Origin: Scenedesmus sp. PABB004
Taxonomy: Eukaryota
Direction of reading: 5' to 3'
DNA length: 64,000 nt
NCBI GenBank assembly: GCA_014905635.1
Contig: CM026547.1
Location: 2,108,001 to 2,172,000, forward strand
This document shows, one piece after another, positions 10,419-64,000 of this stretch. Position 1 is the stretch's first letter; each line of letters begins with the position of its first letter. The position numbers were made by a program, and so were the translations under genes. The notes below the pieces were generated by a model. That model worked only from the letters and a program-made list of their open reading frames with translations. It was not told the DNA's origin and searched no databases.

Positions 10419-11716
10419 CGCGGCGGCGGCGGCGGCGGTCGCGGCGGCGGTCGCGGCTGAGCGCGCGCCGCGCAGTGCCGCGCGCGCCGCGCCGCTGCCA
10501 GCAGGCCGCTGCCAGCAGGCCGGCCCCGCGCGCCGCACACCCTGCAGGCCGTCCGCGATGGTGAGGGGCTTGGGCATGTCGGCCACCAGCCGCCCCGCCG
10601 CCTTTGACGCGGCGACGTCGGCCGCGCCGTTGCTGCCGGACGGCTCCGCCGCGACGACGGCGATGCCGGGGCGCAGCGCCTTGGCCGCGAGCGCCACGCC
10701 CGCGATCATGCCCCCGCCGCTCACTGGCACGACGATCACGTCCAGCTCGGGCGCCTGTCGCCGGCGGGCGCCGCCGGCGGCGGGTGCGCGTCGAAGGAGC
10801 GCGGGGCGCTGCCGCGGCCGGCGCCCCCCCCCCCCCCCCCTGCGGCGCCGCGGCGCGCCGCGCCTGCGCGAGCAGCTCCAGCGCAATGGTGCCCTGCCCC
10901 GCGATGACGGGCGCGCAGTCGTAAGGGGGTACGAAGGTGGCGCCCGTCTCCGCCGCGACGCGCGCGGCCGTGGCCTCGCGGTCGGCCAGCGTCGGCTCGC
11001 ACAGGATCAGCTCGCCTGCGGCGGCGGCGGCGCGCGGCGGTAGGCGCGCGCGCGGCGCGGCCCAGGGCCGCGCCTCCGCCACGCCTCCGCCAGCGCGGCT
11101 AGGGCCGGCGGCCCTGCCGGGCGTCTCACCTCCGTACTCCTTGACTGCCGCGAGCTTGACGGCGGGTGCATTGCGCGGGACGACGATGTAGGCCTTGCAC
11201 CCGCACACGCGCGCAGCGAGCGCGAGCGCCGACGCGTGGTTGCCCGAGCTGCGGCGCCGCGCGCGGCGTCAGCCCGCGCCGCCGCCGCGTGTGGGGCGGC
11301 GCGGCGCGGGGCAGGGGGCGGGGCTGCCGGCGCCGCGCCCGCGCGCGCGCGCCGCCCGCCACCTGTGCGTGACCACGCCCCGCGCCGCCTGCTCCGGCGA
11401 CAGCGAGCGCACCGCGTTGAGCGCGCCGCGAAACTTGAACGCGCCGCTGCTCGCGTGCGGGCGGGCGGCGGCGCGTCGGCGGGCGGGCGCGCGGCGCGCG
11501 CAGCGCCGCCGCACCACCGCGGGGGGCAGCGCCGCACCCTTTCTGGAGCGTCTCGCACTTGAACGTCAGCTCGGCGCCGGCGAGCGCGTCGAGCGTGCTG
11601 CACGTCATCACGGGCGTCACGTGCGCGTGCCCGGCGATGCGCTCCGCGGCGGCGCGGATGTCCTGCAGGCTCGCGGCGTACGCCGGCGCCGCGGCCGGCT
11701 GGGCGGCCGCCGCCAT
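10064..11716 (-). CDS. SRR: Serine racemase (PLP fold-type II)
   Basis: HVTPVMTCSTLD, FKCETLQK|GGAFKFRGA (PLP Lys), VTHS|SGNH, VPVSGGGMIAG, TIADGLQ, VEPSGAAGLAA, CGGNLD. An alternative ATG lies at 11767. Confidence 0.9.
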
Positions 11717-12153
11717 CGCCCCGCCTCCTCCCGCCGACAGGCCCGCCGCAGGCCCGCGCGACCGCATGTCTGTCTCTGGTGTGTGGTGTGTGTTTGGGGG
11801 GGGGTGCTCTGGTCAGGCAAGGCAGGCTGCAGCGGCGGCGGTGTGTGGCCGCCGGGGCCCGGCGCCGCACAAGCAGCGCAAGCGCGCCGCTAGAAGCGCG
11901 GCGCTGTCATGACAGCCGTGTCAGCGCGTCGCCCTGTATCCTGCACGTCCTCTCCTCTCACTCGATCGCCGCGCAACGGCACACGGGGGCGCTCGAGGAA
12001 CACGCCGCGCGCGAACCATCGCCGCCGCGCAACCCCTGCCGCCGCACGGGCGCGCCGGGCGTCCCAGGCCGGCCCGCGCGCTCGCTCGGTCGCCAGAAGC
12101 ACCGGTAACTGCCGACCAAGCGCCCGCAAAGGCCGTCGGGCCGGCGGCGCGGC

Positions 12154-13371: not shown

Positions 13372-13419
13372 CGCACACGTGCGCTGCGCGCGCCGCTGCC
13401 TCGCCGCGCGCCCCGCGGT

Positions 13420-18690: not shown

Positions 18691-21600
18691 ATGCCGGCGG
18701 CGGCGGCGCGGCCCGGGCCGCGGCGGACGCGCCAGTTTGGCGCCGTGCTGCGCAAGAACTTCATCCTCCAGACGCGCGGCCGGCGCACGCTGTTCGGCCT
18801 CGGCGGGTGGGCGGGGCTCGTGGCGCAGGTGCTGCTGCCCGTGGGCTTCTTCGCGCTCATGTGGTGCGAGCGGCGCGCCGCCGCCGCGCGCCGCCGCTGC
18901 TAGCCCGTCCGGCTGCTGGGCGTGCCGCGCTGACGCCCCCGCGCCGCCCGCGCCGCCCGCGCCGCCCGCGCCGCCCGCGCCGCCCGCGCCCCGCGGTCCG
19001 CGCCTTGCCGGTCCGCGCGCCGCGCCGCAGCATCCCCAAGCACTACATTCAGCCCTACCAGCACCCGCGCCTCCTGCAGGCGCAGGAGCACGACCTCGAC
19101 ACCAAGGCCTGGGCCGGCGCCACGCCCTACGAGGGCCCCGCGTCCGCGACCGGCGCCGCGCGCGTGGTGCTCGTGCCCGACACGCCGCCCGTCGCGGCGC
19201 TCGCGGCGCGGCTCGCGATGGCCGTGTCCTGCCCGCCCGAGCCCTACAAGCGCATCTGCAGCCCCGGCAGCATCACCACCTTTGCCTGCCTCTTTGGCGT
19301 CGCGGCGGCGCCGCGCGGCTGCGAGGCGCGCGCGGCGGGCGGCGCGCGCCTGGGCGCGCGCAGACGACAACGCAGGCGCGCGCGCGAGCGCCTGCCCGCC
19401 TGCCTCCGCCGCCACGCGCAGGACGCTGCCACATGCATGGCCACGCCCGCGTGCTACGCGCGCGCGCTTGCGGAGCACATCACGCTGCTGCCGAGCGAGG
19501 CCGCCGCGCTCGCGCTGCTCGAGGAGCGCCCGCACTCGGTGGACGCCGTCGTCGTCTTCCCCCGCGCCGCCGCTGCAGCCGCCCCCGCCGGCAACGCGTC
19601 GGCGGGCGGCGGCGGCGGCGGCGGCGGCTGCGGCGCGCTCGGCGGGGCGCCGGGGGACGGGGTGCTGCTCGAGTATGCGATCCGCATGAACGCGACAGAC
19701 GTCCCGCCCACGCAGCTGCTGCGCGACCTCTTTGACGTCTCCCCCGGCCTCATGCCCCTCCCGGGCAACCTGCTCTGGTGCGCCGCGGCCGCGGCGGTGG
19801 TGCCTCGCCCCGCCGTGCCGCAGCCGCCGCCCGCCCGCCCGAGCCTGGCCGCTCGGCGGGCGCCGCCGCGCCTTGCCACGCCGCCCCGCCGCGACGCCGC
19901 GGCGCCAGGGCGTACCGTGGGTACTGGTTCCTGGCCAACCTCCAGCTCGCGATCGACCGGTCGCTGCTGGGCGGGCGCCAAGGCAACGGCACCTTCCCCG
20001 CGAGCCTCAGCGTGCGGGTCAAGCCCTTCCCCTGTGCGGCGCGGCACACGGCACCGGCGTGGCCTGCCGCCGGCGGCGCACTCGCCGCCCACCCGCGCCG
20101 CCACCCCGCCCGCGCAGGGCCGGCCAAGCTGGAGGACCTGGGCGCCGCGTCGGCTGCTGCCTTTTTCAACCTGCTGCTCGTCTACGCCTTCCTCGCGCCC
20201 ACGCGCGCCGTGGTGGGCGCGATCGTGCGAGAGAAGGAGCTGCGCCTGCGCGAGGGCATGCGCATATTCGGCCTCTCGGTGCGCGCACCGCACGCGCGCA
20301 CGGGCGGCCGCGCCCGCGCGCGTGCGCTGCACCACCGCGGCCGCCGCACACCGCGCGCGCACCGCACCGCGCACCGCGTCCGCGGCCGCAGGAGGCCGCG
20401 TATTGGGCGTCCTGGTCACTCACCCACTGGCTCACGCTCGCGGCGTCGGGGCTGCTCTGCGCCGTGGTGCGCCCGCGGCGCCCGCCCGCCGCCCGCCGCC
20501 CGCCGCCGGTCGGCCGCCGCCGTCCACCTCTGCCCGCCCGCCGACCCCTCTCCGCCCGCGCGCGCGCGCGCCAGGTTGGGCTGTACCCCTTTGCCCACAG
20601 CAGCCTGTGGGTGATGCTGGCCTTTTACTGGCTCTTTGCCGCCGCGCTCATCGCGTTCAGCTACGCGCTCAGCACGCTCTTCGCCGCGAGCCGCGTCGCC
20701 GGCACCGCCACGCAGCTCATCTACGCGCTCTCGATGATCCCGGGGCGAGTCGCGCGCGCTGCGCGTGCTGCGTGCGCTGTGCGTGCTGCGCGTGCTGTGC
20801 AGCCCGCGGCGCGGCTCTCGCCCGTGGTGGCCCCCCTCGCACGCCGCCGCCGCCGCCGCTGCATCCGCCGCCGCGCCCGCGCAGCTTCCTGCTGCCCTTT
20901 GTGCGGCCGTACGGCGGCGCGAGCTGGTACTGGGCCTCGCTCAGCCCCACCAGCGCGGCGTCGCTCTTTGCGGCCGCGCTGGTCAACTGGGAGCGCCTCG
21001 CCGCGGGCGTGACGGTGCGCACGCTGTGGCTTCCAGTCACGCAGGGCAGCGCGTACAGCGCCGGCACCGCGCTCGCCATGCTCGCCCTGGACGTGCTGCT
21101 CTTCGGCGCCCTCGCCTGGTACGGCGACAAAGTGAGCGGCGGCGCGCGCGCGGCAGCAGCACGCCGCGCCCGGCACCGGGCGGCGGCACCGGCGGCGCCG
21201 GCGGCCAGGAGGCAGAGAGGGGGCAGGCGAGCGCTGGTGCGGCGGCGGCCGCTGACGCCCGCGCCTCGTGCCCCTCCCCCTCCCCCCGCGCCTGGCGGCC
21301 GCGCCGCGCAGGTCGTGCCCTCCACGCACGGGCAGGTGCTGCCGCCCTGGTTCCCGCTGTCTCCCTCCTACTGGCGCGCGGACGGCGGCGGCGAGGCGCG
21401 CGGCGCCGTGCCGCCAGGGGCGGAGCGGCCCGGCGGCGGCGCGCAGGACGCGCCGGGCGACGAGCCTGAGGGCCCCGGCGGCGCGCCGCCGGCCATCGAC
21501 GTCCGGGCCTGCGCCGCGTGTTTGCCGCCCCGGCGGCGGCGTGCGCGTGGCGGTGGAGGGGCTGCGCGTCGTGATGCGCAGCGGCCGCATCACCGCGCTG

Positions 21601-23118
21601 CTGGGGCACAACGGCGCGGGCAAGACGACCACCATTCACATGCTGACCGGTGCGCCGCCGCCCCGGGCCCGGGAGGAGGAGGGCGCCCGAGGCCCCGCGC
21701 GCCAGGCGCGCGCGCGGCCGCCGGCCGACCCGCCGCCGCGCCGCCGCGCCGCGCGCGCAGGCATGCTGCAGCCGAGCGGCGGCAGCGCCCGCATCAACGG
21801 CCTGGACATCGCGACGCGCATGCCGGCCATCCGGCAGAGCCTCGGCATCTGCCCCCAGTTCGACATCCTCTGGCGCGCGCCGCGCCGAGTGGGGCAAGGG
21901 GAGGGGGAGAGGCGGGGCGGGCGCGCGCGCGCGCCGAGCCGGCCGGGCGCCGGGCGCGCGCTGAGCGCTGGGCCGCGCCGCGCCGCGCGTCGCCGCGCAG
22001 GCCCGACATCACCGTCGCGGAGCACCTGGCCCTCTACGCCGCCATAAAGGGCGCGGACCGGCGCGAGGCAGAGACCGCCGCGCTGCGCGCGGCCGTGGAG
22101 GTGCGGGCGGCGCCGCCGCGGGCCGGCGCCGCCGCCCGGCGCGCGCGCCGCTGCCCCCGCCCTGCCGACCAGCGCGGCCGCCGTCGCCGCAGGTGGGGCT
22201 CGCTGACAAGCTGGGCAGCCTCGCGGGCGAGCTGTCGGGCGGGCAGCGGCGCAAGCTGTCGGTGGCGATCGCGTTCCTGGGCGACCCAGCGGGTGCGTGC
22301 TTCTGTGTGTGTGGTCGTGTTTGTTGCCCGTGTGGGCGTGGAGCGGGGGAGCAACCGCCCGCACCGCTCAGCCGTCTGCGCCGAGCGCCGTGCTGCGTGC
22401 GGCCCGCATCATGCGCCCCGGCTCACGATGCCGCCCGCTCCCCTGTTTTTCTTTCGCCCTGCCGCCGCGCACAGTGGTGTTCCTGGACGAGCCCACCAGC
22501 GGCATGGACCCGTTCAGCCGGCGCGCCACGTGGGAGGTCATCCGCCGCCGGCGCGGCCGCGCCGCGATCGTGCTGACCACCCACTCCATGGAGGAGGCGG
22601 ACTGCCTCGCCGATGACATCCACATCCTCGCCGAGGGGCGCCTCGTCGCCTCGGGCAGCCCGCTGGAGCTCAAGGCGCGCTACGGCGTGGGCTACACGCT
22701 CACCGCCGTGCTGGCGCACCCCGGCGCGCAGCCGGGCGGCGCGCGGCCCGGGCCGGGCGCCGCGCCCGGCGGCGGCGCGGACGGCGGCGCGGCGGCGCTC
22801 GGGGGCGCGGCGGCGCGCCTCGCGGCGCTCGTGCGCGCGCACGTGCCGGCGGCGGTGCTGCTCAGCGCGGCGGGCGGGGAGGTCGCGCTGCGGCTGCCCA
22901 AGGAGGCGGCCGGCGCGTTCCCCGCGCTGCTGCGCGAGCTCGAGGCGCGGGCGGCCGCCCTCGGCGTCTCCAGTTACGGCCTGTCGGTGACAACGCTGGA
23001 AGAGGTCTTCCTGGCCGTCGCGGACCACGCCGTCACGCTGCACGGCGGCGGCGACGGTGGGAGCGGCGTCGACGGCGGCAGCGGCGGCGGCGGCGGCGGC
23101 GACAGCGGCAGCGGCGGC

Positions 23119-30389: not shown

Positions 30390-30602
30390 CGAGCGGAGCT
30401 GCGCGCTTGTTCGTTCAGCAGCGGCGGCGGCAGCAGCCGCAGCAGCCCCAGCAACTCGGGCGCGCCGCGCGCGCGCACGCACTGACACAGTGGCCGCCGA
30501 CGGAGCAGCGGGGGCATGCATGCCGCGCGCGCGCAAAGCTCTGAACCCCGCCCGAGCAAGCTGCGGCGCGGCGCCGCTGCGCCGCGCCCGCGCGCCGCGG
30601 CG

Positions 30603-31543
30603 TCAGGCCTTCTTGCCGCCGCCAAAGCCGCCAAAGCCCATGAGCGCCATCATGTCCTCGTCCGCCCCGCCCAGGCCGCCGTCGTCGTCGCCGTCGCGCG
30701 CGGCGCGCTTGGCGGCGCGCTTGGCCTCCTTCTTCTCCGCCTTGAGCCGCTCCTCCTCCGCCTCGCGCTCCGCGAGGCGGCGGTCGATGCCGTCCGGCAG
30801 GTAGTCGTCCGGCCGCGCCGCCGCCGCCTTCTCCTTGTGCAGCTGCAGCCGGTTCTTGACCTGCGGCGCGGCGCGGCCGTGGCGGACGCGGAGCCGTCAG
30901 CCGCGCCGCCGCCGGCGGCGCTGCGGCGCGCGCGCGCGGGCTGCCGGCGCAGCAACCGCCGCCGCCGCGGCGCCGGCTGCCGCCCCTGCACCGCCCGGCG
31001 CCCCGCTGCGCCGCCCCGCTGCGCCGCCGCCGCGCGTCCGCGCGTCCGCGCGTTCGCCGCCGCCGCCCCCGCCGCCGCGCCGCGCCGCGCCGCGCCGCGC
31101 CGCGCCGCGCCGCGCCGCCGCGCCTGCTCCACGGTCGAGGCCTCGACCTTCATGCTCATCCCGAGCGCGCGGTTGTGGTACTTGCCGTTGATGTGGTCCA
31201 GGTAGGACTGGCTGTCGCGGAGCACGCAGTCGCACACGCTGCAGTAGTAGCCCGCCTGCTGCGAGAGCGGCGTGTTGAGGCCGATGACCTGGCTCTTGCC
31301 CAGGCGCTCGCCGAGGTTGACCTCGTAGCTGCGCATCTGCAGGCTGCTGCGCGCGACGATGAGGCCCTGGTGCAGCGGGTCGCGCTCGAGGCGCTTGCGC
31401 TTACGCACGGCGAGCGCGGTCTCGTCGTCATCGTGCGCCGCCGCCTTCTTCTCGCGCTCCGCCGCCTTCTCGACAAACTCCTCGCGGTCCCACGTGCGGC
31501 GCGCGGTGTTGTCCACGCCCGACTTGCCGCCGCGCTTGGACAT
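30603..31543 (-). CDS. ZMAT2: U4/U6.U5 tri-snRNP zinc-finger protein ZMAT2/Snu23
   Basis: GVDNTARRTWDREEF, QQAGYYCSVCDCVLRDSQSYLDHINGKYHNRALGMSMKVE, C-terminal MMALMGFGGFGG. One GC-AG intron. Confidence 0.95.
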
Positions 31544-34240: not shown

Positions 34241-34529
34241 CTGAGCGCTCAGCAGTCCCGGACGGGCGCAGCCGGCTGCGGCGAAGCCCCGCGAGCCTCC
34301 CTGAACACGGCCTCGTGCCAGTTGATGCAGCGCAGAAGACCGCGCGCACGCCACGGGCGTGATCGAGCAGCAGCGCGTTTTCAAACGGGCTCGCCTGCTG
34401 CGGCGCTTCTCGGTCCAGCGCTTCTCGGTCCAGCGATCGGCGCGGTGAGGTCGCGTGCTGCTGAGGTCGGGTCGAAGCACTGAAGAGCTGGCAGCGCGTC
34501 AACAGGCATAACACTCGGACCGCCGCCGC

Positions 34530-35180
34530 TCAGCAAGCTCGCGCCGGCGGCGCCCGCGGCGGCGGCAGGCTGCGGTGGCGCGCGTGCATGAGCAGGCCGT
34601 GCTCGGGGCGCAGCGTGACGGCCTGGCGCAGCGGCGGGGCGGCGGCGGCGTCAGCCGGCCGGCGCGCGCGGCGGTGCCTGCGGCGGCGGCCGCACCTGGC
34701 GCGCATCGGCGGCGACGCCGGCCATGCCGCCCATCGCGGCATCGAGCTCGAACACGAAATTTCCCAGCAGCTGGGCAAGCACGGTCTTGAGCTCGACGAC
34801 CGCCAGCGTCGAGCCAGCACAGCTCCTGGTACCCGCGGAAAATGGAAGGAAGCCACGCCGCGCGGCGCCGGCGTCCTGCGCGCAGCGGCGGCTCTCAGGG
34901 CGCAGGCCGGCGGGCCCGCTCGCTGCCCCTGCTCGCCCGCGGCGCCCCACCTTGATCTCCAGCCCGCTGCTCGGCTTGGCGGGCGCCGCCAGCGCGCCGC
35001 CGGCCCTGTCGGCGGCTCGCTTGGCGCCCTGGTCGCTGCGCGCGTGCACGTCGGCGTCGGCGTCGGCCGCGACGTCGACGTAGCCGCCACCGAGCAGGCC
35101 GTCGTCGCCGCCGGCCTGCTGCAGCCAGCGCTCGGGCCGGAACGCGTCGGGCTCGTCCCAGAGCGCGGGGCTGCGTGGCC

Positions 35181-35211
<31 letters not shown>

Positions 35212-40600: not shown

Positions 40601-42054
40601 CCGGTCGGCCCTGGGCGGCCGCTCGTGTGCGCGCTGGCGGCGGGCCTGCTGCCCTGCGTTGACCTGCGCCAGATCTACCGCAGCGCCGCCAGCAGCGCCA
40701 TCGTCAACGCAGCGCACGCCATCAACCGCGGTGCGCACCGCCTCGTTGCGCCGCGCGCCGCGCTGGGGGCGCGCCCCTCCCCGCCCCGCCCCTCCCCGCC
40801 CCGCTGCACCGGCGCCGACGCGCCGCCCGCGCCGCGCCGCGCCGCGCCGACGCGCCCCGCCAGGCGCGACGCCGGTCATCACGACCTGGGACCTCATGCC
40901 CGGCGGCGTGCACGACGACCCGGCCGCGCTCGAGGCGGCCCTGGCGGCGCGGCTGGCGGCGGTGCCGACCGACCCCGACAGCGGGCAGCTGGCGCTGCCG
41001 AGCAACGCGCTGCTGCTGCGCCTCCCAGACGACGCCGCGGCGCACCACGTCGCCGACGCGGCGCTCGCGGCGCTGCGGGTGCTGCTGCCGCGCCTCGGCG
41101 GCGACGCGGCGCTGGACGTGCAGGTGCTGAGCCCCACCAAGCGCGGCCCCGCGGGCACTGGCCAGCTCAACGCGCACCTGCAGGCGCTGCTCAACCCGCG
41201 CGCGCCGGGCAAGGCCGAGCTGCCCGCGCACCCGCACGCGCATGCGCACGCCGGCGCGGGCGGGGGCGCGTCCGGCGCGGCGGCGGGCTCCGCTGTGGCC
41301 GCGCCGGCCGCGGCGTCGTTGGCGCCGGTGTGGCGCGTGGGCGACCGTGTGGTGCACCTGGTGAACGACCCCGAGCGCGACGTCTACAACGGCGACCTGG
41401 GCTACGTCGAGGGCGCCGACGCCGCCCGCCGGCGCCTGGTCGTGCGCTACCCGCCGCGCGGCGGCGGCGCCAGCGCCGGCGGCGCGCCGCGCTTCCACCG
41501 CGTTGCGTACGAGGGCGGCGCGGTCAACGACGAGCTGCAGCTCGCGTGGGCCGTCACCGTGCACAAGGCACGTGCGCGCCCGCGTGGGCTCGGCAGTGGG
41601 CTCGGCAGTGGCGGCGAGCCGCGCGTGCCGGCGCGTGCGCACGCGCGCCGACCGCGCCGCGCCCGCCCCCGCCCGCCGCCCGCAGGCGCAGGGCGGCGAG
41701 TTTCCGCTCGCGCTGCTGCCGCTGCACCAGTCGCAGGGCGCGCTGCTGCTGCAGCGGTCGCTGCTGTACACGGCGGTGAGCCGCGCCAAGCAGCTGCTGC
41801 TGGTGGTGGGCACCCAGGCCGCGCTGCAGCAGTGCATCGACAACCCCGGACCCAGCGCGGCGGCCGCGGTCGCCGGCGCGGCGGCTGGCGCGCCCGGCAG
41901 CGGCGGCGGCGGCTGGCAGGCCCCGGGCGCGGCGGCGGCGGCGGCGGACGTGCGGCTGGTGCAGAAGCTGCGCGCCGCGGCGGCCGCGCGGGGGCTGCGG
42001 CCCTTCCCGCGCCTCGTGTACGGCGCGGACAGGTGGAGCGCGGCGCCCGGCTAG
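37633..42054 (+). CDS. recD2: Bacterial-type RecD2 (SF1B 5'-3' DNA helicase, RecD/TraA family) with an organellar targeting peptide, ~8 exons
   Basis: N-terminal OB-like GTVRTITFESGDTGFKIVKL, HhH motifs AIRGVGPKTAADIV and VRGIGPAKA, NPW..GFKLA. Helicase motifs LTGGPGCGKT, APT|GRAAQRL, STIHRLL, LDEVSMMD, VGDPDQLPPVGPG, LRQIYR, VYNGDLG, AVTVHK|AQGGEF, RSLLYTAVSRAK. Confidence 0.93.
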
Positions 42055-48500: not shown

Positions 48501-51500
48501 CCCGTCTTTGTGAGCGCGACGTCGGGCTGCGGCACGGGCACGAGGACGCAGCACACGGCCTGCGTGGGCGGCGTGGCCTGCAGCGCGCCGCCGTCAAAGC
48601 TGTAGCCCGTGGGGCAGGCAAACTTGTCGCCCGCGGCGTTGATGAAGCCGCAGCGGGGCAGGAAGACCGAGGCCGAGGCGCTGTCGGCGTTGTTTGAGAG
48701 GTCGATGTCCTGCGCCGAGCTCACGGTCGCGACGTTGTTGAATGTGCCCTGCGCGCCACCGGCAAAAGGGGTGTGGGTGCGTGTGTGTGTTTGTGGTTTT
48801 GGGGGGGGGGGAGACAAGTCACGCGGCCTGACCGCGGGCCGGCGCGCGCGCACCTGCGTGCTCGAGCGGGTGGTGACCCGGACCGTCACCGAGCTGCCCG
48901 CGCTCATGTTGCCCAGGTTGCACGTCACGGTCTGGCCGGCGATGCCGCACGCCGGCGACGGCGTGACCGACACCGGCACGAGCGGCGCCTGCAGCGTGTC
49001 GACGAGCTGCACGGCGGTGGAGGGGTCGGCGCCGCGCGCGTCTACGCGCAGCACGAAGTCAAAGTTGGTGTCTACCGCCACCGCGGTCGCGGGCGCGGTC
49101 TTGGTGAGCGCCAGGTCTGGGAAGAGCACGCGGTTGCAGCAGGTCGCGAGGCCCGGCGAGGTGCTGCTCGCGGCGCCGGCGTTCACGGTGTAGTTGGCCG
49201 GGCAGGTAAACGCGGCGCCGGCGGTCGTAAAGACGGCGCAGGTGGGCACGTACTGCGTGGCGCGGCGGCGGCGGGGCCGGCGGGGACGTCGGCGGCTCGG
49301 TGCCGCCCGCGCATCACAACGCCGCACGCCGGCCGCTCGCGCTGCTGCCGCCCCAGCTCCGGCCCTGCCAGGCAGTGCGCTGCCTGGCGGGCTCACCAAG
49401 GTGACGCTGACCTGCGGGCGGCAGCGGCGGGCGGGCGCTCAGCGATGCGCCTGCCGCGCCTCAGCCCGGCCGCGGCGGCGGCCGCCGCGCCCCGCACCGT
49501 GTCGGTGTTGTCGGCCAGGTTTGCGTCGAGCAGGGCGGCCGCGTCCACGCGGTTGGCGACCGCGCCGAGGGTCGGGCCGACCGCCTGGGTCGTGACGGTG
49601 ATGTTGTAGGTGGTGCCGACCGGCACCGTGCCAAAGTCACACGACAGGACCTGGGCGCTGATCGTGCACACTGCGCGCATGCGACGGCGGCGGTGGCGGC
49701 GGCGTTGGCGCGCCGGCGGGCGCGCGCGCGCGCGCTTGCATGGGCGCGCGCGCACCAGTGGCGCCGGGGCTGGGCGTGACGGCGACGCTGAGGGGGGTGA
49801 GCCCCGCGGGAAAGGTGTCTGCCAGTGTGACGTTCTTGGCCTTGAATGTCCCGCGCGAGCTGAGCTGGATGCGAAAGTCAAACGTCGAGGTGAGCGGGAT
49901 CAGCGTGGCGGGGCCGTACTTGCGGACCTGCGCGCCGCGTGTGGGGGCGAGGGCAGGCCGCGCGGCGGGCCCTCGGCGCGTGCGGGGCCGGGGCTGCGGC
50001 GGGCTCTCCGCGCGCGGCGCGGGCCGCGGCGGCGGCGTGCGGGCTGGGCGGGCCACGCGCGGCGCGCGCCTCCAGGTCTGCCCCCGGGGTCTCCTTGCAG
50101 CAGGTGGCGGCGCTGGGCGGTGCGAGCAGGGCGGAGGTGGCGTTGTAGACGAGGTCGCCGGTGCAGACGTACGTCGCGCCGTTGCCGTCGGTGGAGCCGC
50201 ACGCGGGGACATACTGCGCGCGCGCCGCGGCCGCGGGGCGCGGCTGAGGCGCAGCGCGCGCGCGGCCTGGTCGCTCGCCGGCAGCGCGCGGAGCGTGGGC
50301 AGCGCGCTGCGCGTGCCGCGCGCGCACCGTGGTCACGGAGACGGTGTTGGAGGGCACCGCTGCGCCGGCGCCGATGTAGGCGTTGGCCGTGTTGGCAAAC
50401 GTGTTGGCGGTGCTGGCCTGGGCCGTGATGGTGATGGTCACGGCCGTGTCCTCGGGCACGTCGCCCAGGCTGCACCTCACGCGCTGGCCAGTGACGGTGC
50501 AGGCGCCGCCTGGCGGCGGGGGGCGCGGCGGCGCAGCGGCAGGCGCGTCGGGCGCGCTGTGGCACGACTGCTGCCGTGCGGGGCGCACGCGCGGCGGGTG
50601 CCGGGAGGCAGCGGGCGGGCGCCAGGAGGCACGCGCTGCGGCGCTCACTGCTGGCCGACGCGGACTGCGGCACGACGTTGGTTGGCAGGTCGTCGATCAC
50701 TGTCACGTTCACGGCCGCGATGGTGCCCGTGGAGTTGAGGATGAGGCTGAAGTTAAACGGAGCGCCAACCTGGATCAGGGACGCGGGCCCCGCCTTGGCG
50801 ATGGCGACCGAGGCCGTGCCCAGCACCACGATCTGCGGCGCGCGAGCGCGACGGGGGCGGCACAGAGACGGAGGCGCGTGGCGGGCGCGCGCGGCGGGGA
50901 CCGGCCGGCGGGAGCGCGGCGGCAGCGCCGGCCGGCCGCGGTGGCCCCGCGCGCTGCGCGCGCGCCGCGCGCGCCGCACCCTGCAGCAGGTCGCGGCGTC
51001 GGTGGTGGTGGAGTTGACGTTTGCGGCATCGAGCACGCTCGACCCGGTGCAGGGGTACTCCTGGGCCCCCGCGGGCGCGGTCGGGTCGTAGAGGCCGCAT
51101 GTGGGAGTGAAGACGATGACGCTCGCGCTGTCCGTGTTGTCGCCTAAGATGAGATCGTTTGTGGCCGTGGACGTGCCGCTGATGGGGTACGACCCGCCCG
51201 CGCTCGCCTGGCAGGTCAGCGTCACTGCGGCGCGGCCGGGCGGCGGTGCGGGGGCGCGTGGCGCGGGCGTGCGAGGGGCGGGCGAGCTGGGCCGCGCTGC
51301 TGCGGAGTGGCGGTGGCGGTGCGCAGCCGCCGCTGGCCCCGCCCGCGCGCGCACACCCGTGATGCTGCTGCCCGCCGTCATGTTGCCAAAGTTGCAGGAG
51401 AGCGCCGTGCTGCTCGTCAAGGAGCACGCGGGAGTGGGCGTCACCGCCGAGCAGGTCACGCCGGCGGGCAGCGTGCTGGTCAGCGCCGCGCTCTCCGCGG

Positions 51501-53810: not shown

Positions 53811-56088
53811 TCAGAAGGGCGCGAATGCCTTGTCTCGTATGACCATGAACTTGAGCCGCCCGTCGCCCGTGTTCCAAATGCGGCGCTTGCTCCGTGGGCC
53901 GAGGCCCTGCGGGTTGATGGTGCTCTCGATTGGCTGGTCCAGATGCGCTGGCAGTACGTAGTAGCCCAAGAGAACGTCGCCCGCGGCCTGCGCCCGGCTG
54001 AGCACGCGCCACAGGCTGATCGCCTCGCCGCGGGCGCAGTACTCGGAGGCGTCGACGATGCTCCAGTCCGAGCGCTGGCCGACGCCGGTGATGACCAGCA
54101 TGGCGAGCGGGTTGACCGCCACCTGGGCCAGCAGCTTGGCGGACATGGAGTTGATCTGCCGCGGCGGCGGCGGCGGCGGCGGCGCCCGGCGTCAGGGCGC
54201 GCGCGCCTCGCCGCGCCGCAGCGTGGCGTGCCCCGACCGCCCGGCCGGCTCACGTTGACGCTGATGCCGAGCGGCAGCCGCCGGCGGTCCTCGAAGCGGG
54301 TCAGGCCCTGCGTGGCGACCTTCTGGCAGATGATGTTGATCGGCGGCAGCCGCAGCTCCTCCAGCAGCTTGCGAATGTTGAGCTGCGCGGCCGCGGCGGC
54401 GGTCGCGGCGGTGGGGGTGCGGCGGTGGGCGCGCCGGCACGGCCCGCCCGCCCGCCCGCCCGCCCGCGGCGCACACCAGCAGCCGCGCGCCGCGGCCCCC
54501 GCGCCCCGTGCGCCGCGCACCTGGACCGTGACCATGAGCGCGTCCTGGCGCAGCACGCTGGGCTGGTCGATCGCATCAATGCCGTTGGTGTCATCGCCGT
54601 CGGGGTCGGACCAGCGCGAGTCGGCCAGCACCAGCGCCGCGCGGAAGCGGGCGAGCGGCAGCGCCGCGAGCTGCGAGCGCTGCAGCGGGTCCGCGAGCAC
54701 GTGCGACACCTGGGCGCGGGGGGCGGGCGCCGCCGCGGCGGCGGCGGCGCGAGTTCAGCACGCGCCGCGCGGCCGGGCCAGCAGCCGCCCTGGCGCCAGG
54801 CCGGGCCCTGCCTGCGCCGCGCCTTGATGTTGCTGTCCTGCCCGACGCGGCGCAGCGCGCGCATGAGGTCGTCGGCCGGGTGTGTGTTGACGCACACCAC
54901 CTCGCTGCCCGGCGGGAGGAAGCCACCCTCCAGCGCCGACATAAGCTCACGCATCAGCCCCGGCTCCGCCATGCCGCACACCAGCACGGCCTGCGGCGAG
55001 CTGCGGCGCGGCACGCGGCGGCAGGCCAGAGGGCAGGCCGCGCGGCGTCGGGCATCTCAGCCGGCATCCCTGTCTCGGGTTTTGGGGGACCCACCCGCTG
55101 GCCCCCGGAGCCCGCGCGGCCCTGCCGCAGCGCGGCGCAGTGTCACCTGTCCACCGCCAGGTACTCCCGCGGCACGTAGCTCCAGCTCGACTGATCGTCG
55201 CTGCCGACCCAGGCGTGGCGGCTCAGGTCGGGCGCGCCCGTCGGTGGGGCGCCGCCGGCCGCGAGCCGCCCCGCGCGCGGCGCCGGCTGGCCCGCCCCGC
55301 CCCCGGCGCCCGGCGGCACCGTCGGCAGGCCGTCCATGCTGCTCGCGCTGTCGCGCCCGACGGTGGGCACGGCGTCCCGGGGCAGGGCGTCCATGCTGTC
55401 CAGCGTGCTCTCCAGCACCGACCCGCTGCTCCACCCCGACGCGCCGCTGTAGCGCGCGCTCGCCAGGTCGTCAGCGCTGCCCGCTGCCGAGCCCGGCGCG
55501 TCCAGAGCGTCCAGAGCGTCGTCGCCCTCATAGTCGATGCCGCCGTAGCCGGCGCCGTAGTCGGCGTCCAGCGACGAGCCCGTCGCCATGGCCAGCCCTG
55601 CGCGCGCCTGCAGCCCCGGCTGGTCCCAGTCGCCGGGGTCGGGCGACGGCGCGTCGTCGTCGCCCCCGGGCATCAGGTCCTCGTCAGACTCCAGCGCCGT
55701 GCGCATCGTCGCGCCGCGCCGGCTTCCGGCGGCGGCGGCGGCGCCCAGGCCGCCCGCCAGCTCCTCCTCGCAGCTGCTCAGCACGGCAGACGCAAACGTT
55801 GCCGCGGGAGCGCGAGCGCGGCGGCCGTTGCTGGCAGCGATGCTGGCGCTGGCCAGCGGCCCTGCAGCTGCAGGGCCTGCCATCCCAGGCTGCACGCCGC
55901 CGCTGCCACCTCCGCCAGCGGCGCGCGGCAGCTGCGTCTGCTCCTGGTCGATGGAAGACTGCGCCAGGGAGCTGCCCGGGCTCCTGTCGTCCACCATCGC
56001 CGCCGAGAAGGGCACGCCCAGGCTGTCCCCCGAGCTGTCGCTGCTGCTGCCGGTCCTGCTGGTCGCCGCTGGCCGCGCCACCACCTGT

Positions 56089-56139
<51 letters not shown>

Positions 56140-58895
56140 GCCGCCGGCGCCGGCGCCGGCGGCGGCAGGTCCAGCTGCTGCGTCTGCCGCTGCGCCTGGC
56201 GGCTGGCTGCTGCTGCGCTGCGCGCCGGCGGTGGCTCCTCGCCCAGCTCTGTCTCTGCGCCGACGTACGACGGGCGCTGCTGGGCCATGACGCCGGCAGG
56301 CTCCGCCGTCGCCGCTGCCTGGCCGCCCGGCGCGGCCGCTGCCGAGCCCTGCTGCTCCTGCCAGGCGCTGCCGGCCAGGAGGTCCACCAGCTTCCCCTGC
56401 CAGCCCCGCGCCTGCGCCGCCGCCTCGCGCTGCTGCTGCTGCAGCAGTGCCTGCCCCTGCTGCTCGAGCTCGCCGATGCTGAGCAGCCGCGGCAGCGGCC
56501 GGAAGTCGGCCGCCGCGATCGACGTGGGGCGGCAGAAGACCAGCTCGTCGTCGGGGCGCACGCAGTAGTCGGCGGGCAGGCTCAGGCTCACGCGCCCGCT
56601 GCCCAGGTGCGCCACGCCGAGCACGATGGCGTCGGGGAAGAGGCGCGCGAGGCTGCGGAACGGCGTGCCCGTGAGCTCGGGCATCGCCTGGATGTGGAGC
56701 CCACTGCGAGAGTCGAACGCAAACAGGCGCTGGCTGATCCAGGAGACAAAGGGGCGCTTGATCATGCGCGCGAGCCTGGAGGGCGGGGAGCAGGGAAGAG
56801 GGGGGACGGCACGCGCGGCGTGGGGTCGCCGCCGGCTGGCCGCGCGCGGCGGAGGGCCGGCTGGCCCCGTCGCCTCCGCCGCCGGCGGCCGCGCGCACGC
56901 ACCGGTGCGCGTTGAGCGCGCCCGTCGGCAGCGGTATCACGCGGCGGCTGCAGCTGAAGCGCAGGAGCGGCACCGCGTTGGCGGTGCGCGTCTCGACCAC
57001 GATGTGCCCGAGCTGCCGCCCCCGGCGCAGGCCGCGGTAGTCGTCCAGCTCGTCCAGCAGGATGGCGCACCTGCGCGCGGGCGAGAGCGTGTGCGCGCGT
57101 GTTTGTGTGGGGCTTGGCGTGTGTGGTGTGTTGTGTGTGTGTGTGTGTGCGCCTGAGGGTGCGGCACCGGCGGCGCGCGCGCCGCCGCCCGCCCGCCCGC
57201 CCGGGGGGTCCAGGCAGCGCGGCGCGGCCGCACCGGAGGCTCTGCGCGTCCGCCTCGTCGCGGCCGCGGCTCTGGTCGCTGAGGATGATGACGCTGCGCG
57301 CGCGGCTGGCCGCCACGTTGCTCAGGTCGCTGGGCAGCAGCGGGCTGCCCTGCCGGAACACCAGCCGGCAGCCCGCACGCGTCGCGGGGGGCAGCGCGTT
57401 CCTGCGGGCGCGCGCGCGGGCCGGCGGCGCGCTCGGCGGCGGGCGGCCGCCGCCGCGGCGCCGCGCCTGCCTGGCTGGCGCGCCCGCTGGCCTGGCCGCC
57501 GCCGTGGCGCAGGGCCGCCGGGGGCGAGGCGCCCCACTGCATTCCTCTCCCATCTCTCACCTCCTCCCTCCTCGCCCTCAACCCTAAACCCTCTCCGCCC
57601 ACCTGAAGATCTCCTCCATCTCCAGCTTTTCCCGCTGACTCAGCACCACGATCGTCGCGCCGCCCTCCGCCGCGGCGGCGGCGCAGAGCTGGCCCACGAG
57701 CTTGATCAGCACCTCCAGGTCGCGCTGGCTCACCGCCCAGGACAGCACCAGGAACTGCGGCGGCGGAGAGCGGCGCGCGGGCGCGTCAGCTGCGCGCGCG
57801 CGCACGCGCGGCCGGCGGCGGCGCGGTGGCGCGGCCGGGGCGGGCTCACGTGGCCGGACTCGAAGACCTGGCTGCCCTTCTTGACGTTTGCCAGGTTGGC
57901 CTCCAGCACCAGCTGCTCCACAATGGCCAGCGCGAGCGCAAAGCCCGCGAGGCCCACGAGCGCGACGAGCACGCTGAACACCTGCCGGCGCGGCGAGGAG
58001 CGGCGCGGCGCAGACCCTCGGCGGCCGCCGGCGGGGGCGCCGCGCCGCGCCGCGCCGCGCCGCGCCGCGCCTGCTCCACGGGCGTCGCGGGGCCGTCTGT
58101 GCCTGGGAAGCTCTCGCCGAAGCTGAGGACCATGACCTGGTACACGTCACCCCACAGCGCGGCCAGCCAGCTGCCAGCGCCACCCGACGCCGCGGCGGGG
58201 GCGCCAGCCGCCGCCGCGCCGGGCGCGCCCGCCGCCGATGCCGCCGCGGCCGCCGACGCGGCCGCGGCGGCGGCCGCCGCGTCGGCGGCGGGGTCGATTG
58301 CGATCCGTTTGAGCAGCGCCGCGGCGAGCAGGAGGAGGGAGGAGGCGCCGGAGATGAGCAGGAGGTCTGACACGCCGTCGGTGCGCCAGTTGTAGTACTC
58401 GTACAGTGCGCGCTTGGGCAGCTCGCGCAGCGCGCGCAGCCAGCGCCGCCGGCTGCGCGGGCGCGGCCGCGCCGGCGGCGCGGGCGCGCCGGCGGCGGCG
58501 CGCGCCGCCTGGCCCCGGAAGCGCGCGACGTCCGCGGCCGCCCCGTTCACCAGGTCCCAGTCCGGCCCGCCCCCGACGTGCGGCCTGGCCGTGGAGGCGC
58601 TCCAGCTGCTGTCCGGCAGGGGCCCGGTGAAGCTGTAGGGCTGGTCGAGCGTGCGCCTGGAGGGTTGGTCGGCCGCGCGGTCGGCCGTGCGGTCGGCCGA
58701 CGGCGCGCTGGGCGGCTCGCCGCCGCCGCCCGAGGCGCCGCCGCCCGAGGCGCCGCTGGCGCAGCGCACGCGCCGGCAGGCTGGCCGGGCCGGCGGGGAC
58801 CTGGAGGGCACCTGGCAGGCGCCCCGCCGACGCGCCGGCGCCGGCGCCGGCAGCGGCGCCGGCGCTGCCGGCGCATGGTGCAGCGCGGAGCTCAT
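53811..58895 (-). CDS. CASTOR/POLLUX/DMI1-family cation channel-like protein with a plastid transit peptide and two RCK-like domains
   Basis: Transit-like ...RRVRCA. TM segments, then VKKGSQVFESGH|FLVLSW, VVLSQREKLEME, FRQGSPLLPSDLSNVAASRARSVIILSDQSRGRDEADAQSLR, GHIVVE, PELTGTPF...FPDAIVLG, VLVCG, RRIWN.GD...KFMVI. Confidence 0.88.
56091..56139 (-). repeat. Coding (CAG)16 polyglutamine tract within the channel gene
   Basis: (CTG)n on the + strand; Q16 in ORF 55143..56765. Confidence 0.9.
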
Positions 58896-59936: not shown

Positions 59937-60691
59937 TCACCGGCGCGCGCAGAGGGCGCGGAGCAGGCGCGCCAGCCAGCCGGGGCGGGCGGCGGCCTCC
60001 CCCTCCCCGGCGGCGCCCGAGCCGCCGCCCTTGCGGCCGGGCCCCCGCGCCGCGCCGCCGCCCCGCTCGAGCAGCACTGCGCCGTCGAAGCTGCCGCCGG
60101 GCGGCGGGAACATCTGGCGCAGCGGCTGCAGGCGCGCCTGCACCAGCGTCAGGTTGGCCTCCTCCGCGCCGTTGGTGCGCATCGCGCTGAGCAGGTAGCC
60201 CATCTGGCACGCGCGCGGCGCGGTGGGGCGGCGGGGCGGGGCGCGGCACGGCGGAGGTGGGCGCGCGCGCGGCGCGGCTGCGCAACCGCCCTCGCGGCGC
60301 GGCCACCGCCGCCGACCGGCCCCCGTGCCCCCCCGCCCCCGGGCGCACCATGATGTCGTAGTGGCGCTGCGTGACGGCGTGGGCCTTGATGACGGGCACG
60401 TGCACGCGGCGCAGGTACTCGATCTGGCGCTCCGTCATCGCGGCGTCAAAGAGCGTGAGCTGGTGCAGGAAGTAGCTCACGTGCGTGCGCAGCACCACCA
60501 TGTTGACGCCCCGGAACAGCGGGCCCAGGTCCGGGTCGGCGTAGATGTCCCTGCGGGCGCAGGGGCGCGCTCGCGCGGCGGCGGGCGAGGCGGGCGCGGC
60601 GGGCGCGCGCCGCGTGACGCAGCAGCCGCGCGCACCGGTAGTAGTCGTTGGTCGCCTCCTGGATCAGCGGCATGTCCAGGGCCGCGGCCAT
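59937..60691 (-). CDS. Divergent group I truncated (2/2) haemoglobin-like protein, 3 exons
   Basis: MAAALDMPLIQEATNDYY|RDIYADPDLGPLFRGVNMVVLRTHVSYFL...YLRRVHVPVIKAHAVTQRHYDIM|MGYLLSAM...LQPLRQMF. B10 Tyr, DPxL, CD1 Phe, proximal F8 His and HYD are recognisable. Confidence 0.8.
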
Positions 60692-61393
60692 GGCTGCGCG
60701 CGGCGGCCCGCGCGGCGGCGCGGCGCGGGCGACTCGCGCTGCTGCTCGCTGCGCCGGCGGCGCCGGCCGGCGGGCCCGCAACCCGCGCCTCCACAGAGCA
60801 GCCCCGGAGCGCGCCTCCCTCCCGGAACCCCGCGCCGCAGCGCGGACCCGCCCCAGGCACCGCGGCGGGCGCTGGCCCCCGCCTCTCCCGCGAGCCGCCC
60901 CCGCGTCGCGCCCACCTGCCGGCATGGTGCCCGCAATCACCGGAGAGGTCACAGACGCTCTAGGCAGGCGGGGGCACCATCGAGCGGGCGCCGCGCGCGC
61001 GTGAGCGCGCCGGGAGCGGCTCTTGCCGGGCGTGAGCTGGCGCGGAGGGGCGGGTCGGCGATCGATCGCGCTGCAGCCCGGGGATGTGTGAGCGGGCGGC
61101 AAGCGGCGCGCCCAGGAGCTCACACCGCCGCACGACGCCGGGGCGGCCGTCGTTTCGCCGTTCTGTGCGGCTCAGCGGCTCAGCGGCGGCCCGACCGCCG
61201 CGGGTGCGTCTGCGCACCGCGCAGGGCCGCATGCGCCTGCACTGCCGCCAAAAGCGCCCGCTCAACGCGCCCGCCGCCGCCGGACGCCGCCGCTCGCGCG
61301 GCGCGTGGCAGCAGCGCGCGCGCACACCCCCGCGCGCCGGGGCTTTTTTGGCCCTGCTGCGCTGCGCTGCGGCGCCCCGGAGCTGCGGGCGTG

Positions 61394-64000
61394 ATGGCGT
61401 GCCGGCGGGCGCTCGCCGCGGCGGCAGCGCTCGGGCAGCAGCAGGCGGCGGCGACCGCCGCGCTGCCCGCCGCTGCGGCGCCGGAGGCGGCGGCGCTGCT
61501 GGGCCGGCTGGTGGCGCACGAAGCGGAGCAGGGCGCCGCGCTGGGTGCCGCGACGACGCGGCGGCGCCCTCCATCGCTGCTGTGCTCGCCGCCGCCGCTC
61601 GCGCAGGCGGCGGCGCGGCCGTGGGCGCAGGAGAGCGGCGAGAGTGGAAGCAGCGGCAGCGGCAGCGGCAGCAGCGGCAGCGGCAGCGGCAGCGGCAGCG
61701 CGGCGCACGCGAGCCGGGCCGACGACGATCCTGGGGACGCGCCGCCCCCGGGCGACTCGCTCACGGCGGCGCTGGCGGCGCTTCGCAGCAGCTCGCGCGC
61801 CGGCAAGCTCACGCCGGCGGCCATCACGCAGCAGCTGGACAGGCACATCGTCGGCCAGGCGGTGCGCGGCGCGGCGCGGCGCGGCGCCTCTCCCTGCCCG
61901 CGCGGCGCACGGCGCGCGGCGCGCCAACACCGCCGCGGCCCCGCCCGCCCGCCAGGCCGCCAAGCGCGCCGTGGCGGTGGCGCTGCGCAACCGCTGGCGC
62001 CGGCACCGGCTGCCGCAGCACATCGCCGAGGAGGTGCGGCGCGGCGCGCGCTCCGCCGCCGCCGCCCGCGCCTGCCGCCGGGCGGGCGGCCCACCCCGCC
62101 CCGCCGCCCCCGCTCTCGACTCCCCGCCCCGGCCCGCCAGATCACGCCCAAAAACATCCTCATGGTGGGCGGCCCGCGCCGTCACCCGGGCTGGGGGGGG
62201 GGGGCGCGCCGCGCGCGCGCACGCCGCGCGCCCGCACCCGCGCTGCGCCCAGCTGCCCCCCCCCCCCCTGCCGCAGGTTGGGCCGACCGGGTGCGGCAAG
62301 ACCGAGATCGCGCGCCGCCTGGCCAAGCTCGTGGACGCGCCGTTCGTCAAGGTGCGCCGGCGCTGGTTGTGGCTGGCACGGCTGGCGCGCTGCGCGCCGC
62401 GGCCGAGGCCGGCCGCTGCTGGTCTCGGGGGCGCGCAGGTTGAGGCCACCAAGTTCACGGAGCTGGGCTTTGTGGGGCGCGACGTCGACGAGGTGGGGGA
62501 CGGGCGGCGTGCGGCCGCGGGAGGGGGCGCGCGCGGCGCGGCAGCTGTTGCCGGCGCGGCGCCGGGCGACGCGCGCCCCGCCCCTACACCCCGCACCGCG
62601 CTCCCCTTGCCGTCTCGCCCCGCTCAGATCGTGAAGGACTTGGCCGACGCGGCGCTCGCGCTCACGCGCGCGCGCCTGGCCGAGGGCCTGCGCGCCGCGG
62701 CGGGCGGCGTCGTGGAGGCGCTGCTGCTGCGCGAGCTCTGCGGCGACAGCCCGGGCATGGTCGAGGCGTTCACGCCCCTCTACCGTGCGGGCGAGCTCGA
62801 CGACCGCCTCGTGACGGTGGACCTGGACGCCCTCGGCGACGCGACGGCCGCGGGCCCGGGTGGCCTCGCGAGCCTGGGCGGCCCGGGCGGCCCGCTCGGC
62901 GGCGGCGGCGCGCCGCCCGGGGGCGCGCCGGGCGAGGGGCCCGGCGGCGCCGGCGCCGGCGGCGCGGGCGCGGCGGGGCACCCGCTGGGCGCGCTCGCGA
63001 GCGTGATGGAGGCGATGGCGCGCCGTGGCGGCGGCGACGGCGGGCACCGCGGCGGCGGGCACCGCGGCGCGCGGCGGCAGCGCATGCCCATCGCCGAGGC
63101 GCGGCGGCTGCTGCTCGACGCCGAGGTGGAGCGCTGCCTCGCGAGCGACCGCGTGGTGCGCGGCGCGGCGCGGCGCCGCGCGGGCAGCCCGCCAGCCAGC
63201 CGCCGCGGCACGGCGCGGCGCGCGAGCCCTGCCCTGTCCCACGCCGCGCCTGCCGTGCAGGTGCGCGAGGCGCTGCGGTGCGCGGGCGAGGACGGCATCG
63301 TGTTCATTGACGAGATTGTGAGCGGCACCGAGGGGCGCGAGCGGGGGCCGAGGGGCGGGCACGGCCAGGGAGGAGGGGGGCCCTGGCGAACGAGGGGACG
63401 CGGGCAGCCCGGCGCGGCGATGACGCCCCGCGGGGCGTGACCGCGCGCCCCGCCCGCGCCGCGCGCAGGACAAGATCGTCGACGCGAGCCGCGGCGCGGC
63501 GGGCGCGACGAGTGAGGCGGCGCGCGCCGGGCGACGCGCGTGCGCCCCGCGCGCGCCCTCGCCGACGCGCCTCGCCCTCCCCCGCGCGCGCGCGCGCGCG
63601 CAGGCAGCAACGTGAGCAGCGAGGGCGTGCAGCGCGACCTGCTGCCCATCCTGGAGGGCAGCGTCGTGACGACCAAGCACGGCCCCGTGTCGACCGACCA
63701 CGTGCTCTTCATCTGCAGCGGCGCCTTCCACTCGACCAAGCCAGGCGACATGCTCGCCGAGCTGCAGGCGCGCGCGCCAGGCGCCGCGCCGCGCCGCGCA
63801 GCGCGCCGGCCGCGCGCGCGGCGCCGGCGAGACGCGCGGCCGCCGCGCGGCTCACCCGCTGCCGTCGCATGCAGGGGCGGCTGCCGGTGCGCGTCGAGCT
63901 GGCGGGCCTGACGGCGGACGACTTTTTCCGCATCCTCACCGAGCCGGCGCACAACATGCTGCGCCAGGCGGCGGCGCTGCTCGACACGGAGGGCGTCGCG
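61394..64000 (+). CDS. hslU: HslU/ClpY ATPase subunit of the HslUV protease, mitochondrial-type presequence; runs off the window end
   Basis: [125 protein letters not shown]. Confidence 0.96.

Follow-up and report, generated by a model that had tools for sequence, protein, structure and literature searches.

Homology-supported GC-AG introns account for about one in eleven introns in a 79% G + C window of Scenedesmus sp. PABB004

Introduction

Introns of the U2 type that carry GC in place of GT at their 5' end and retain an AG acceptor (GC-AG introns) make up 0.37–0.86% of all U2-type introns in a set of five model species (PMC1557818), and their mean share over 121 plant genomes is 1.2% (PMC6310983). 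Here, we examine such introns in 64 kb of DNA from Scenedesmus sp. PABB004 (contig CM026547.1, positions 2,108,001 to 2,172,000), a stretch that we call the window and for which an initial annotation had proposed 11 GC donors among roughly 120 introns, or about 1 in 11. Each of the 11 was recovered by a gene model trained de novo; eight are the best junctions in a homology test that is blind to the donor dinucleotide, and three are supported through solved structures, so that the proposal holds for the complete set.

The closest described cases are found in GC-rich algae. In Emiliania huxleyi, about 60% of the donors are GC at 65% G + C, and GT-biased gene models were shown to be wrong (PMC4028052). 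In Aureococcus anophagefferens and Pelagomonas calceolata, about 14–17% predicted GC-AG introns were attributed to high G + C, and a lower-GC relative of these pelagophytes has 0.32% (bioRxiv 10.1101/2024.10.30.620910). Genomic and splice-site G + C contents also correlate in plants, with r of about 0.40 (PMC7072748). Within the Sphaeropleales, Mychonastes homosphaera had the highest G + C content reported by 2020 (72.4%), and the passages of that paper on GC content, intron, and splice contain no donor statistics (PMC7354681). A literature search, in which supplements were not opened, listed no paper that gives the frequency of GC-AG introns in the Sphaeropleales or in other green algae.

As in the U2-type GC-AG introns of animals and plants, GC occupies +1/+2, the acceptor is AG, the other donor positions lie nearer the consensus than those of GT donors, and the GT and GC types switch among relatives (PMC1557818). 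However, the share is about 9% in the window, against 0.37–0.86% in the five model species and 1.2% on average in plants, the typical donor is GCGCG rather than GCAAG, and the compensation lies mainly in an exon-side AG. E. huxleyi is likewise a GC-rich alga with many GC-AG introns, fully canonical AG acceptors, and misled GT-biased predictors, whereas in this haptophyte GC is the majority donor (about 60% at 65% G + C) and in the window it reaches only about 9% at 79%, with T at +2 far better kept (PMC4028052). The share in the pelagophytes (14–17%) is of the same order of magnitude as that in the window, although those algae are stramenopiles with genome-wide figures, whereas ours describes one window and the lower-GC relatives studied here still have GC-AG introns (bioRxiv 10.1101/2024.10.30.620910). 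The finding thus adds a case and not a principle, as a raised GC-AG share has already been described in other GC-rich algae.

Results

GC-AG introns predicted in the window

The window was decoded with a generalized hidden Markov model that contained periodic second-order coding states, intron phases, GT or GC donors, and AG acceptors. It was trained on the window alone, with equal priors for GT and GC at the start. The converged model holds 146 introns, 114 with GT and 32 with GC donors, and the latter include all 11 claimed ones. When GC donors were forbidden, the claimed donors shifted by 9–81 nt or the local structure was rebuilt, at a cost of 4–53 log units per 5-kb neighborhood. The 11 predicted introns are given below, with a slash at the exon–intron junction. 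All of them begin with GC preceded by G on the coding strand (G/GC) and end in a CAG acceptor.

10755..10863, minus strand, serine racemase-like gene (SRR/PALP): GC-AG intron, 109 nt, phase 0, donor CAG/GCGCGG
19326..19421, plus strand, ABCA gene: GC-AG intron, 96 nt, phase 0, donor GAG/GCGCGC
20745..20884, plus strand, ABCA gene: GC-AG intron, 140 nt, phase 2, donor GGG/GCGAGT
21873..22000, plus strand, ABCA gene, NBD1: GC-AG intron, 128 nt, phase 2, donor CTG/GCGCGC
30861..31123, minus strand, ZMAT2/Snu23-like gene: GC-AG intron, 263 nt, phase 0, donor CAG/GCGCGG
35171..35263, minus strand, cytochrome P450 gene: GC-AG intron, 93 nt, phase 2, donor CAG/GCGCGG
41568..41685, plus strand, RecD2-like helicase gene: GC-AG intron, 118 nt, phase 0, donor AAG/GCACGT
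49928..50069, minus strand, DUF11-repeat gene: GC-AG intron, 142 nt, phase 0, donor GAG/GCGCGC
54710..54822, minus strand, Castor/Pollux-type channel gene: GC-AG intron, 113 nt, phase 0, donor AAG/GCGCGG
57982..58070, minus strand, Castor/Pollux-type channel gene: GC-AG intron, 89 nt, phase 0, donor CAG/GCGCGG
63768..63874, plus strand, HslU gene: GC-AG intron, 107 nt, phase 0, donor CAG/GCGCGC

Donor-blind placement of the junctions

The window has a G + C content of 79% (25,610 G and 24,769 C), a base composition that is extreme for a eukaryote. GC starts at 20.8% of positions on the two strands (26,649 sites) and GT at 3.8% (4,869 sites), so that a GC-AG pair can be fitted almost anywhere. 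A spliced aligner with equal costs for GT and GC placed spurious GC "introns" over lineage-specific insertions, at positions that varied by homolog, and only junctions recurring across homologs were counted from the spliced alignments. Because GC-AG pairs fit anywhere, each claimed site needed a test without an assumed donor type.

This donor-blind test covered 56 model introns in the ABCA, channel, RecD2, and HslU genes. Frame-compatible junctions within ±30 nt were ranked by their mean alignment score to homologs, with an AG required at the acceptor and the donor dinucleotide left free. The ABCA homologs, 150 in number, came from a search of 1.84 billion representatives and include the ortholog P0002, which aligns across the whole gene with a score of 4254. 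The flanks scored 1.3 per residue or more in 37 of the 56 introns, and in this group the optimum began with GT in 25 cases, with GC in 7, and with another dinucleotide in 5. The GC optima are six claimed sites in these four genes and 21396, which lies in a doubtful stretch and tied with its runner-up junction. Among the optima that were neither GT nor GC, four lie within 3 nt of a consensus GT, and the fifth is the doubtful model intron 63018. With their own references, 19326–19421 and 50069–49928 were likewise donor-blind optima. Overall, eight of the 11 claimed sites could be tested in this way, and each was the single best junction.

Evidence at individual sites

In the ABCA gene, the spliced alignment to P0002 gives 19326–19421, 20745–20884, and 21873–22000 as GC-AG introns. 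Restricting the alignment to GT donors lowered the score from 3822 to 3492 and moved donors to 20772 and 21889, which bears out the warning of the initial annotation that GT-only gene finding would mis-model such genes. At 19326, the junction is the best one against P0002 (156 versus 145); the gene model splits this intron by a spurious 12-nt exon, whereas P0002 gives a single intron, 19326–19421. At 20745, MIPG/FLLPF is collinear with MMPGFLLPV of P0002, and the donor-blind optimum (108.6 versus 105.7) beats the best GT option with 17 of 30 homologs and ties with 3. The junction at 21873 beats the best GT option with all 30 homologs, with a donor-blind optimum of 173.1 versus 162.4.

The RecD2 donor at 41568 was picked in 12 of 12 spliced alignments, and its junction, TVHK/AQGGEFP, scores higher than the best GT option with each of 40 homologs; the next-ranked junction lies 6 nt downstream and is likewise GC-AG. 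In the DUF11-repeat gene, the references for 50069 were the gene's own uninterrupted repeats. DLE/VRKYGP matches the intronless DLEVAKYGP of the paralogous repeat at 45924–46403, and the junction is better with five of five paralogous repeats. In the channel gene, 54822 was picked in seven of eight spliced alignments (donor-blind optimum 198.6 versus 188.0). At 58070, PVEQ/VFSV matches PVEELFS (PVEE/LFS) of Tetradesmus homologs. This junction was found in five of eight spliced alignments, one of the others having a different structure. In the junction test with 14 homologs, it came out ahead with 11, level with 2, and behind with 1.

In the HslU gene, the frame upstream of 63768 follows solved HslU to ...ELQ, and after TGCAG the next exon opens with GRLPVRVEL. 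The donor was picked with all 15 HslU homologs, the acceptor at 63874 with 14 of them and that at 63967 with 1. The nearest GT lies 66 nt upstream or 96 nt downstream, the latter only 10 nt before the acceptor. In addition, the genome's annotated HslU protein, P0316, has 566 matches to the window with no gaps and uses the GC-AG intron at 63768.

The remaining three sites were placed with solved structures. At 10863 in the SRR gene, the flanks ...GQGTIALELLAQ / APELDVIVVPVSGGG are collinear with serine racemase 5cvc_A over residue 180, ELLAQ/APELD corresponding to residues of about 176–185; the nearest GT lies 45 nt upstream or 124 nt downstream. At 31123, the ZMAT2 flanks ...MSMKVEASTVEQ / VKNRLQLHKEK are collinear with ...MSMRVERSTLDQVKKRFEVNKKK of human ZMAT2, with STVEQ/VKNRLQ opposite STLDQVKKRFE in 5o9z_N. 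The exons flanking 35263 in the P450 gene share one frame, and reading through would insert 31 residues, exactly the 93-nt segment, between residues 382 and 383 of CYP3A5 (5veu_A), which are contiguous in that protein.

Donor motif and exon-side compensation

The 11 donors read GCGCGG in five cases, GCGCGC in four, GCGAGT at 20745, and GCACGT at 41568. GCGCG is thus present in 9 of 11, and GTGCG is the most common GT donor (67 of 114), both in line with the initial annotation. GTGAG accounts for a further 26 GT donors, so that +4 is C or A in 93 of 114; C at +4 is a feature of all donors in the window and not of GC donors alone. With G at +3 in 10 and at +5 in all 11, the GC donors are the local GT consensus with C at +2. 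AG/GCGCG is found at 87 of the 26,649 GC sites in the window (0.33%) and in 8 of the 11 donors. None of the 11 has the U12-type donor GCATCC (PMC1557818).

On the exon side, AG occupies −2/−1 in 9 of 11 GC donors and in 35 of 114 GT donors (Fisher p = 0.0014). Expressed the other way round, GC makes up 9 of the 44 donors behind AG and 2 of the 81 others. GCGAGT, one of the two donors without AG, is the best match on the intron side. The standard U1 5' end is ACUUACCUG, and the standard U6 box is ACAGAG. Leaving +2 aside, GC donors have 5.6 positions that could pair with U1 and GT donors 5.0 (one-sided Mann–Whitney p = 0.007). Similarly, the remaining donor positions of GC-AG introns in model species compensate for the +2 mismatch to U1 (PMC1557818).

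In their other properties, the GC introns resemble the GT introns. They are 89–263 nt long, with a median of 113 nt versus 120 nt for GT introns, and 11 of 11 end in CAG versus 109 of 114 GT introns. In nine of the 11, the length is not divisible by 3. About 91% of the donors retain T at +2, against 6.5% T in intron interiors, implying that recognition of +2 is not relaxed. On the sense strand, these interiors have 6.6% A, 47.7% C, and 39.3% G, with C in excess over G.

Share of GC donors

Counting the 114 GT introns and the 11 GC introns, the GC-AG share is 11 of 125, or 8.8%, in close agreement with the earlier estimate. The share would be 16 of 130 (12%) if five remaining candidates were real (23149, 33578, 37666, 55774, and 61514), which were neither accepted nor counted in the 8.8%. 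None of the gene model's 21 extra GC introns was accepted. Three of them are gene-joining artifacts (30159–30608, 34241–34583, and 59398–59972), one (8496–8764) is preceded by a one-codon first exon, and two (15938–15986 and 19376–19421) are micro-exon artifacts. Two more fit better as GT introns, 24109 by homologs and 47180 by paralogous repeats, and eight of 35–71 nt lie in low-complexity or poorly conserved sequence (305, 14299, 17603, 21396, 25077, 28586, 56184, and 63018).

GC-AG introns in relatives at lower G + C

Three metagenome loci from relatives were obtained in a scan with alignments of channel-exon fragments: L001 (54% G + C), L002 (53%), and L003 (66%). A metagenome scan with a single exon of 63 amino acids had found no relative. 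In their Castor/Pollux homologs, 18 introns were consistent between two references, and three of these are GC-AG, two of 12 in L002, one of four in L003, and none of two in L001. The three introns, L002 2891–3151 (CAG/GCAAGC), L002 6148–6518, and L003 1234–1452 (both CAG/GCAAGG), are donor-blind optima by at least 10 points. L002 6148 and L003 1234 share the position AKLLTQ/VA, which is intronless in the window, where a GT intron (54156–54253) sits 11 codons upstream.

At position 54822, shared with L001, the window has GC and L001 has GT, whereas at 56902, shared with L002, the window has GT and L002 has GC (CAG/GCAAGC). GT and GC forms therefore swap in both directions at shared intron positions, and such subtype switching has been described in vertebrates (PMC1557818). 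The presence of GC-AG introns at 53% and 66% G + C indicates that they are not confined to an extreme-GC genome, and extreme GC is not the whole cause. The initial annotation had proposed that 5' splice-site recognition has adapted to extreme GC and that lower-GC relatives be compared. The part of that proposal that stands is the reliance on exon-side matches, whereas adaptation to extreme GC is too strong a term, as T at +2 is well kept and the same channel gene carries GC-AG introns in the relatives.

Discussion

Junctions fixed by homology, normal lengths, CAG acceptors, and consensus-like donors argue for ordinary introns of the major spliceosome. We consider it probable that these are U2-type introns with C for T at +2, present at about 9% of the introns in the window through a balance of mutation and selection. 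A C at +2 would cost one base pair with the 5' end of U1, and it would be tolerated mainly where sufficient pairing is preserved by the exon-side AG, the +3 G, and the +5 G. The T-to-C changes at +2 would be supplied by GC-biased mutation or gene conversion, and selection would purge most of them. The outcome would be an equilibrium well above the approximately 1% of most eukaryotes, in which a given intron position could change between the GT and the GC form in the course of evolution. The retention of T at +2 against so low a background, together with the placement of C mostly behind an exon-side AG, would then reflect mutation pressure acting against U1 pairing.

Several observations weigh against this reading. 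The share of GC among the donor-blind optima (7 of 37) is about the background frequency of the dinucleotide and is no proof alone; the case for GC donors comes from the motif, from margins of 3–11 points, and from there being no GT that could serve instead. The least certain site of the 11 is 19326, which lies in a weakly conserved stretch, has a length that is a multiple of 3, and is undecided against the best GT option, with 24 of 30 homologs tied. At 31123, an in-frame GT 9 nt upstream would drop three residues (VEQ), and at 58070, two of eight alignments and one of 14 homologs favor a GT 9 nt upstream with an in-frame deletion of three residues. At both sites, homology disfavors the GT alternative. 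The SRR, ZMAT2, and P450 sites rest on solved-structure alignments judged by eye, and splicing at the exact bases is inferred from protein collinearity throughout. The rate describes one 64-kb window, with a total taken from our own gene model, rather than the genome, and the most closely tested genes are those holding claimed sites. Since the GT set comes from the same model and contains some errors (e.g., 21501–21558 and 34792–34950), the comparison of exon-side AG is approximate. Finally, 3 GC-AG introns among 18 in relatives with 53–66% G + C weaken the role of GC-biased pressure.

The relatives also bring up a different explanation, in which a raised GC-AG share is an inherited trait of the Sphaeropleales or Chlorophyceae, kept or switched intron by intron and not due to extreme G + C. 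The GC-AG introns of L002 and L003 are all donor-blind optima, these two loci share an intron position together with its donor, and one intron that is GT in the window is GC in L002. However, this basis consists of one gene and 18 introns, and the relatives' donors are GCAAG rather than GCGCG. Moreover, the plant-wide average is 1.2% (PMC6310983), our literature search found no report of raised GC-AG in green algae, and in other GC-rich algae GC content and GC-AG share go together (PMC4028052; bioRxiv 10.1101/2024.10.30.620910; PMC7072748). A clade-wide trait is therefore an explanation that we regard as unlikely, if worth serious attention. Errors of our own analysis would be another source of apparent GC donors, either as chance GC-AG pairs whose true donors are nearby GTs or as assembly errors that read T as C. 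The dinucleotide background makes such pairs easy to find, our own tools invented spurious GC introns (the 21 extra ones in the gene model and many seen with single homologs), and apparent 1-nt frame slips at ~21506 and ~21531 suggest that small assembly errors are possible. Nevertheless, each of the 11 sites has a single optimum by homology, use of the nearest GTs would break the frame or delete conserved residues, and AG/GCGCG is far too rare among GC sites for its frequency among the donors. Nine of the 11 segments are of a length not divisible by 3 and so have to be removed, and eleven T-to-C errors exactly at +2 would be an implausible error pattern. We thus judge an artifact to be highly improbable.

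A changed spliceosome, with a variant U1 5' end or U6 box that accepts C at +2 and +4, would account for GC donors about 10 times more common than in model species and for the GTGCG consensus, 61% of the GT donors differing from GTRAGT at +4. This appears very unlikely. The retention of T at +2 indicates that this position is still read as U, and GC donors need extra exon-side matches, as expected with an unchanged U1 (PMC1557818). Ordinary GC-AG introns have been described as showing the same compensation, so that no variant of U1 or U6 is required (PMC1557818). An Rfam search of the 64-kb window gave no match, hence no small nuclear RNA (snRNA) there. There is also only a very small chance that the reading of the 5' splice site has shifted jointly with the snRNAs (in the U1 5' end or the U6 box), tolerating C at +4 in most donors and C at +2 in one donor out of ten. 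If it were so, the alga would be a natural case of co-evolution between spliceosome and splice sites under extreme GC pressure.

For annotation, ordinary U2-type introns with C at +2 have a practical consequence. Tools that are limited to GT or penalize GC strongly would misplace about 1 junction in 11 here, so that around half of the multi-intron genes observed would suffer frame shifts or lose conserved residues, whereas aligners with free GC invent introns, since GC-AG pairs are everywhere at 79% G + C. The results are of use for annotating this genome and, more modestly, for the study of splice-site evolution under GC pressure.

Gene content and minor observations

The window contains 292 stop-free open reading frames of at least 150 residues, and all six frames are represented, so that plain open reading frames are uninformative at this G + C content. 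In predicted exons, G + C reaches 95.5% at codon position 3 and 56.5% at position 2. A scan for three-base periodicity revealed short coding stretches on both strands, with aperiodic gaps between them. Pfam was searched with 134 stop-free open reading frames picked by codon periodicity. The pieces detected belong to GMPPB, a GST, a TPR protein, a PALP/serine racemase-like enzyme, EMC7, cofilin, a full ABCA transporter, DUF1308, a ZMAT2/Snu23-type zinc finger, a P450, a RecD2-type helicase, a long DUF11-repeat gene, a Castor/Pollux channel, and HslU. Each gene detected is spread over several frames, in keeping with the earlier view of the DNA as eukaryotic, with the domain pieces of split genes scattered over frames; the window is nuclear, intron-rich DNA. 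The top protein matches are to Tetradesmus, Scenedesmus, and Monoraphidium, which places the host among the chlorophycean green algae, close to the Sphaeropleales.

In ABCA NBD1 (21490–21560, plus strand), the likeness to ortholog P0002 (PPAVQLVNLRKVFRSTDGGTKVAVDGISVSM) crosses three reading frames in about 60 nt, running through PPAIDVR, then GLRRVFAAP, and then a third stretch. The 1-nt frame slips lie near 21506 in a G run and near 21531 in a C/G run, and they may reflect either genuine frameshifts or two deletions of one base each in the assembly. The gene model covers this stretch with a doubtful 58-nt GT intron (21501–21558).

DUF11 is mostly a bacterial and archaeal domain. The DUF11 gene (42589–52930, minus strand) extends over about 10 kb and some 35 exons and contains at least 10 repeats of one module, which consists of Y-x-P-x-C-G, a Cys-rich linker ending in CC, and a DUF11 domain. 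Several repeats have introns at a matching position (...CAG/TAC), and a Cys-rich tail closes the gene.

The RecD2 gene (37633–42054, plus strand) encodes a bacterial-type helicase with OB, HHH, SH3, and UvrD_C_2 domains; it is split by spliceosomal introns and has long low-complexity inserts. The 914-residue homolog P0203 scores 919, versus 474–701 for homologs of about 735 residues. The protein is possibly an organelle-targeted enzyme.

In the P450 gene (34747–34851, minus strand), the heme-binding stretch FLPFSAGTRSCAGS... matches residues 410–444 of CYP3A5. As this stretch lies partly inside the model intron 34792–34950, the model intron is misplaced, the actual acceptor being necessarily upstream of 34851.

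The annotated HslU protein, P0316, omits a 24-nt micro-exon (62141–62164, plus strand) that is supported by 14 of 15 homologs, and it retains a 105-nt GT intron (63156–63260, plus strand) whose removal is supported by the same proportion, 14 of 15. The deposited HslU model thus contains errors that are unrelated to GC donors.

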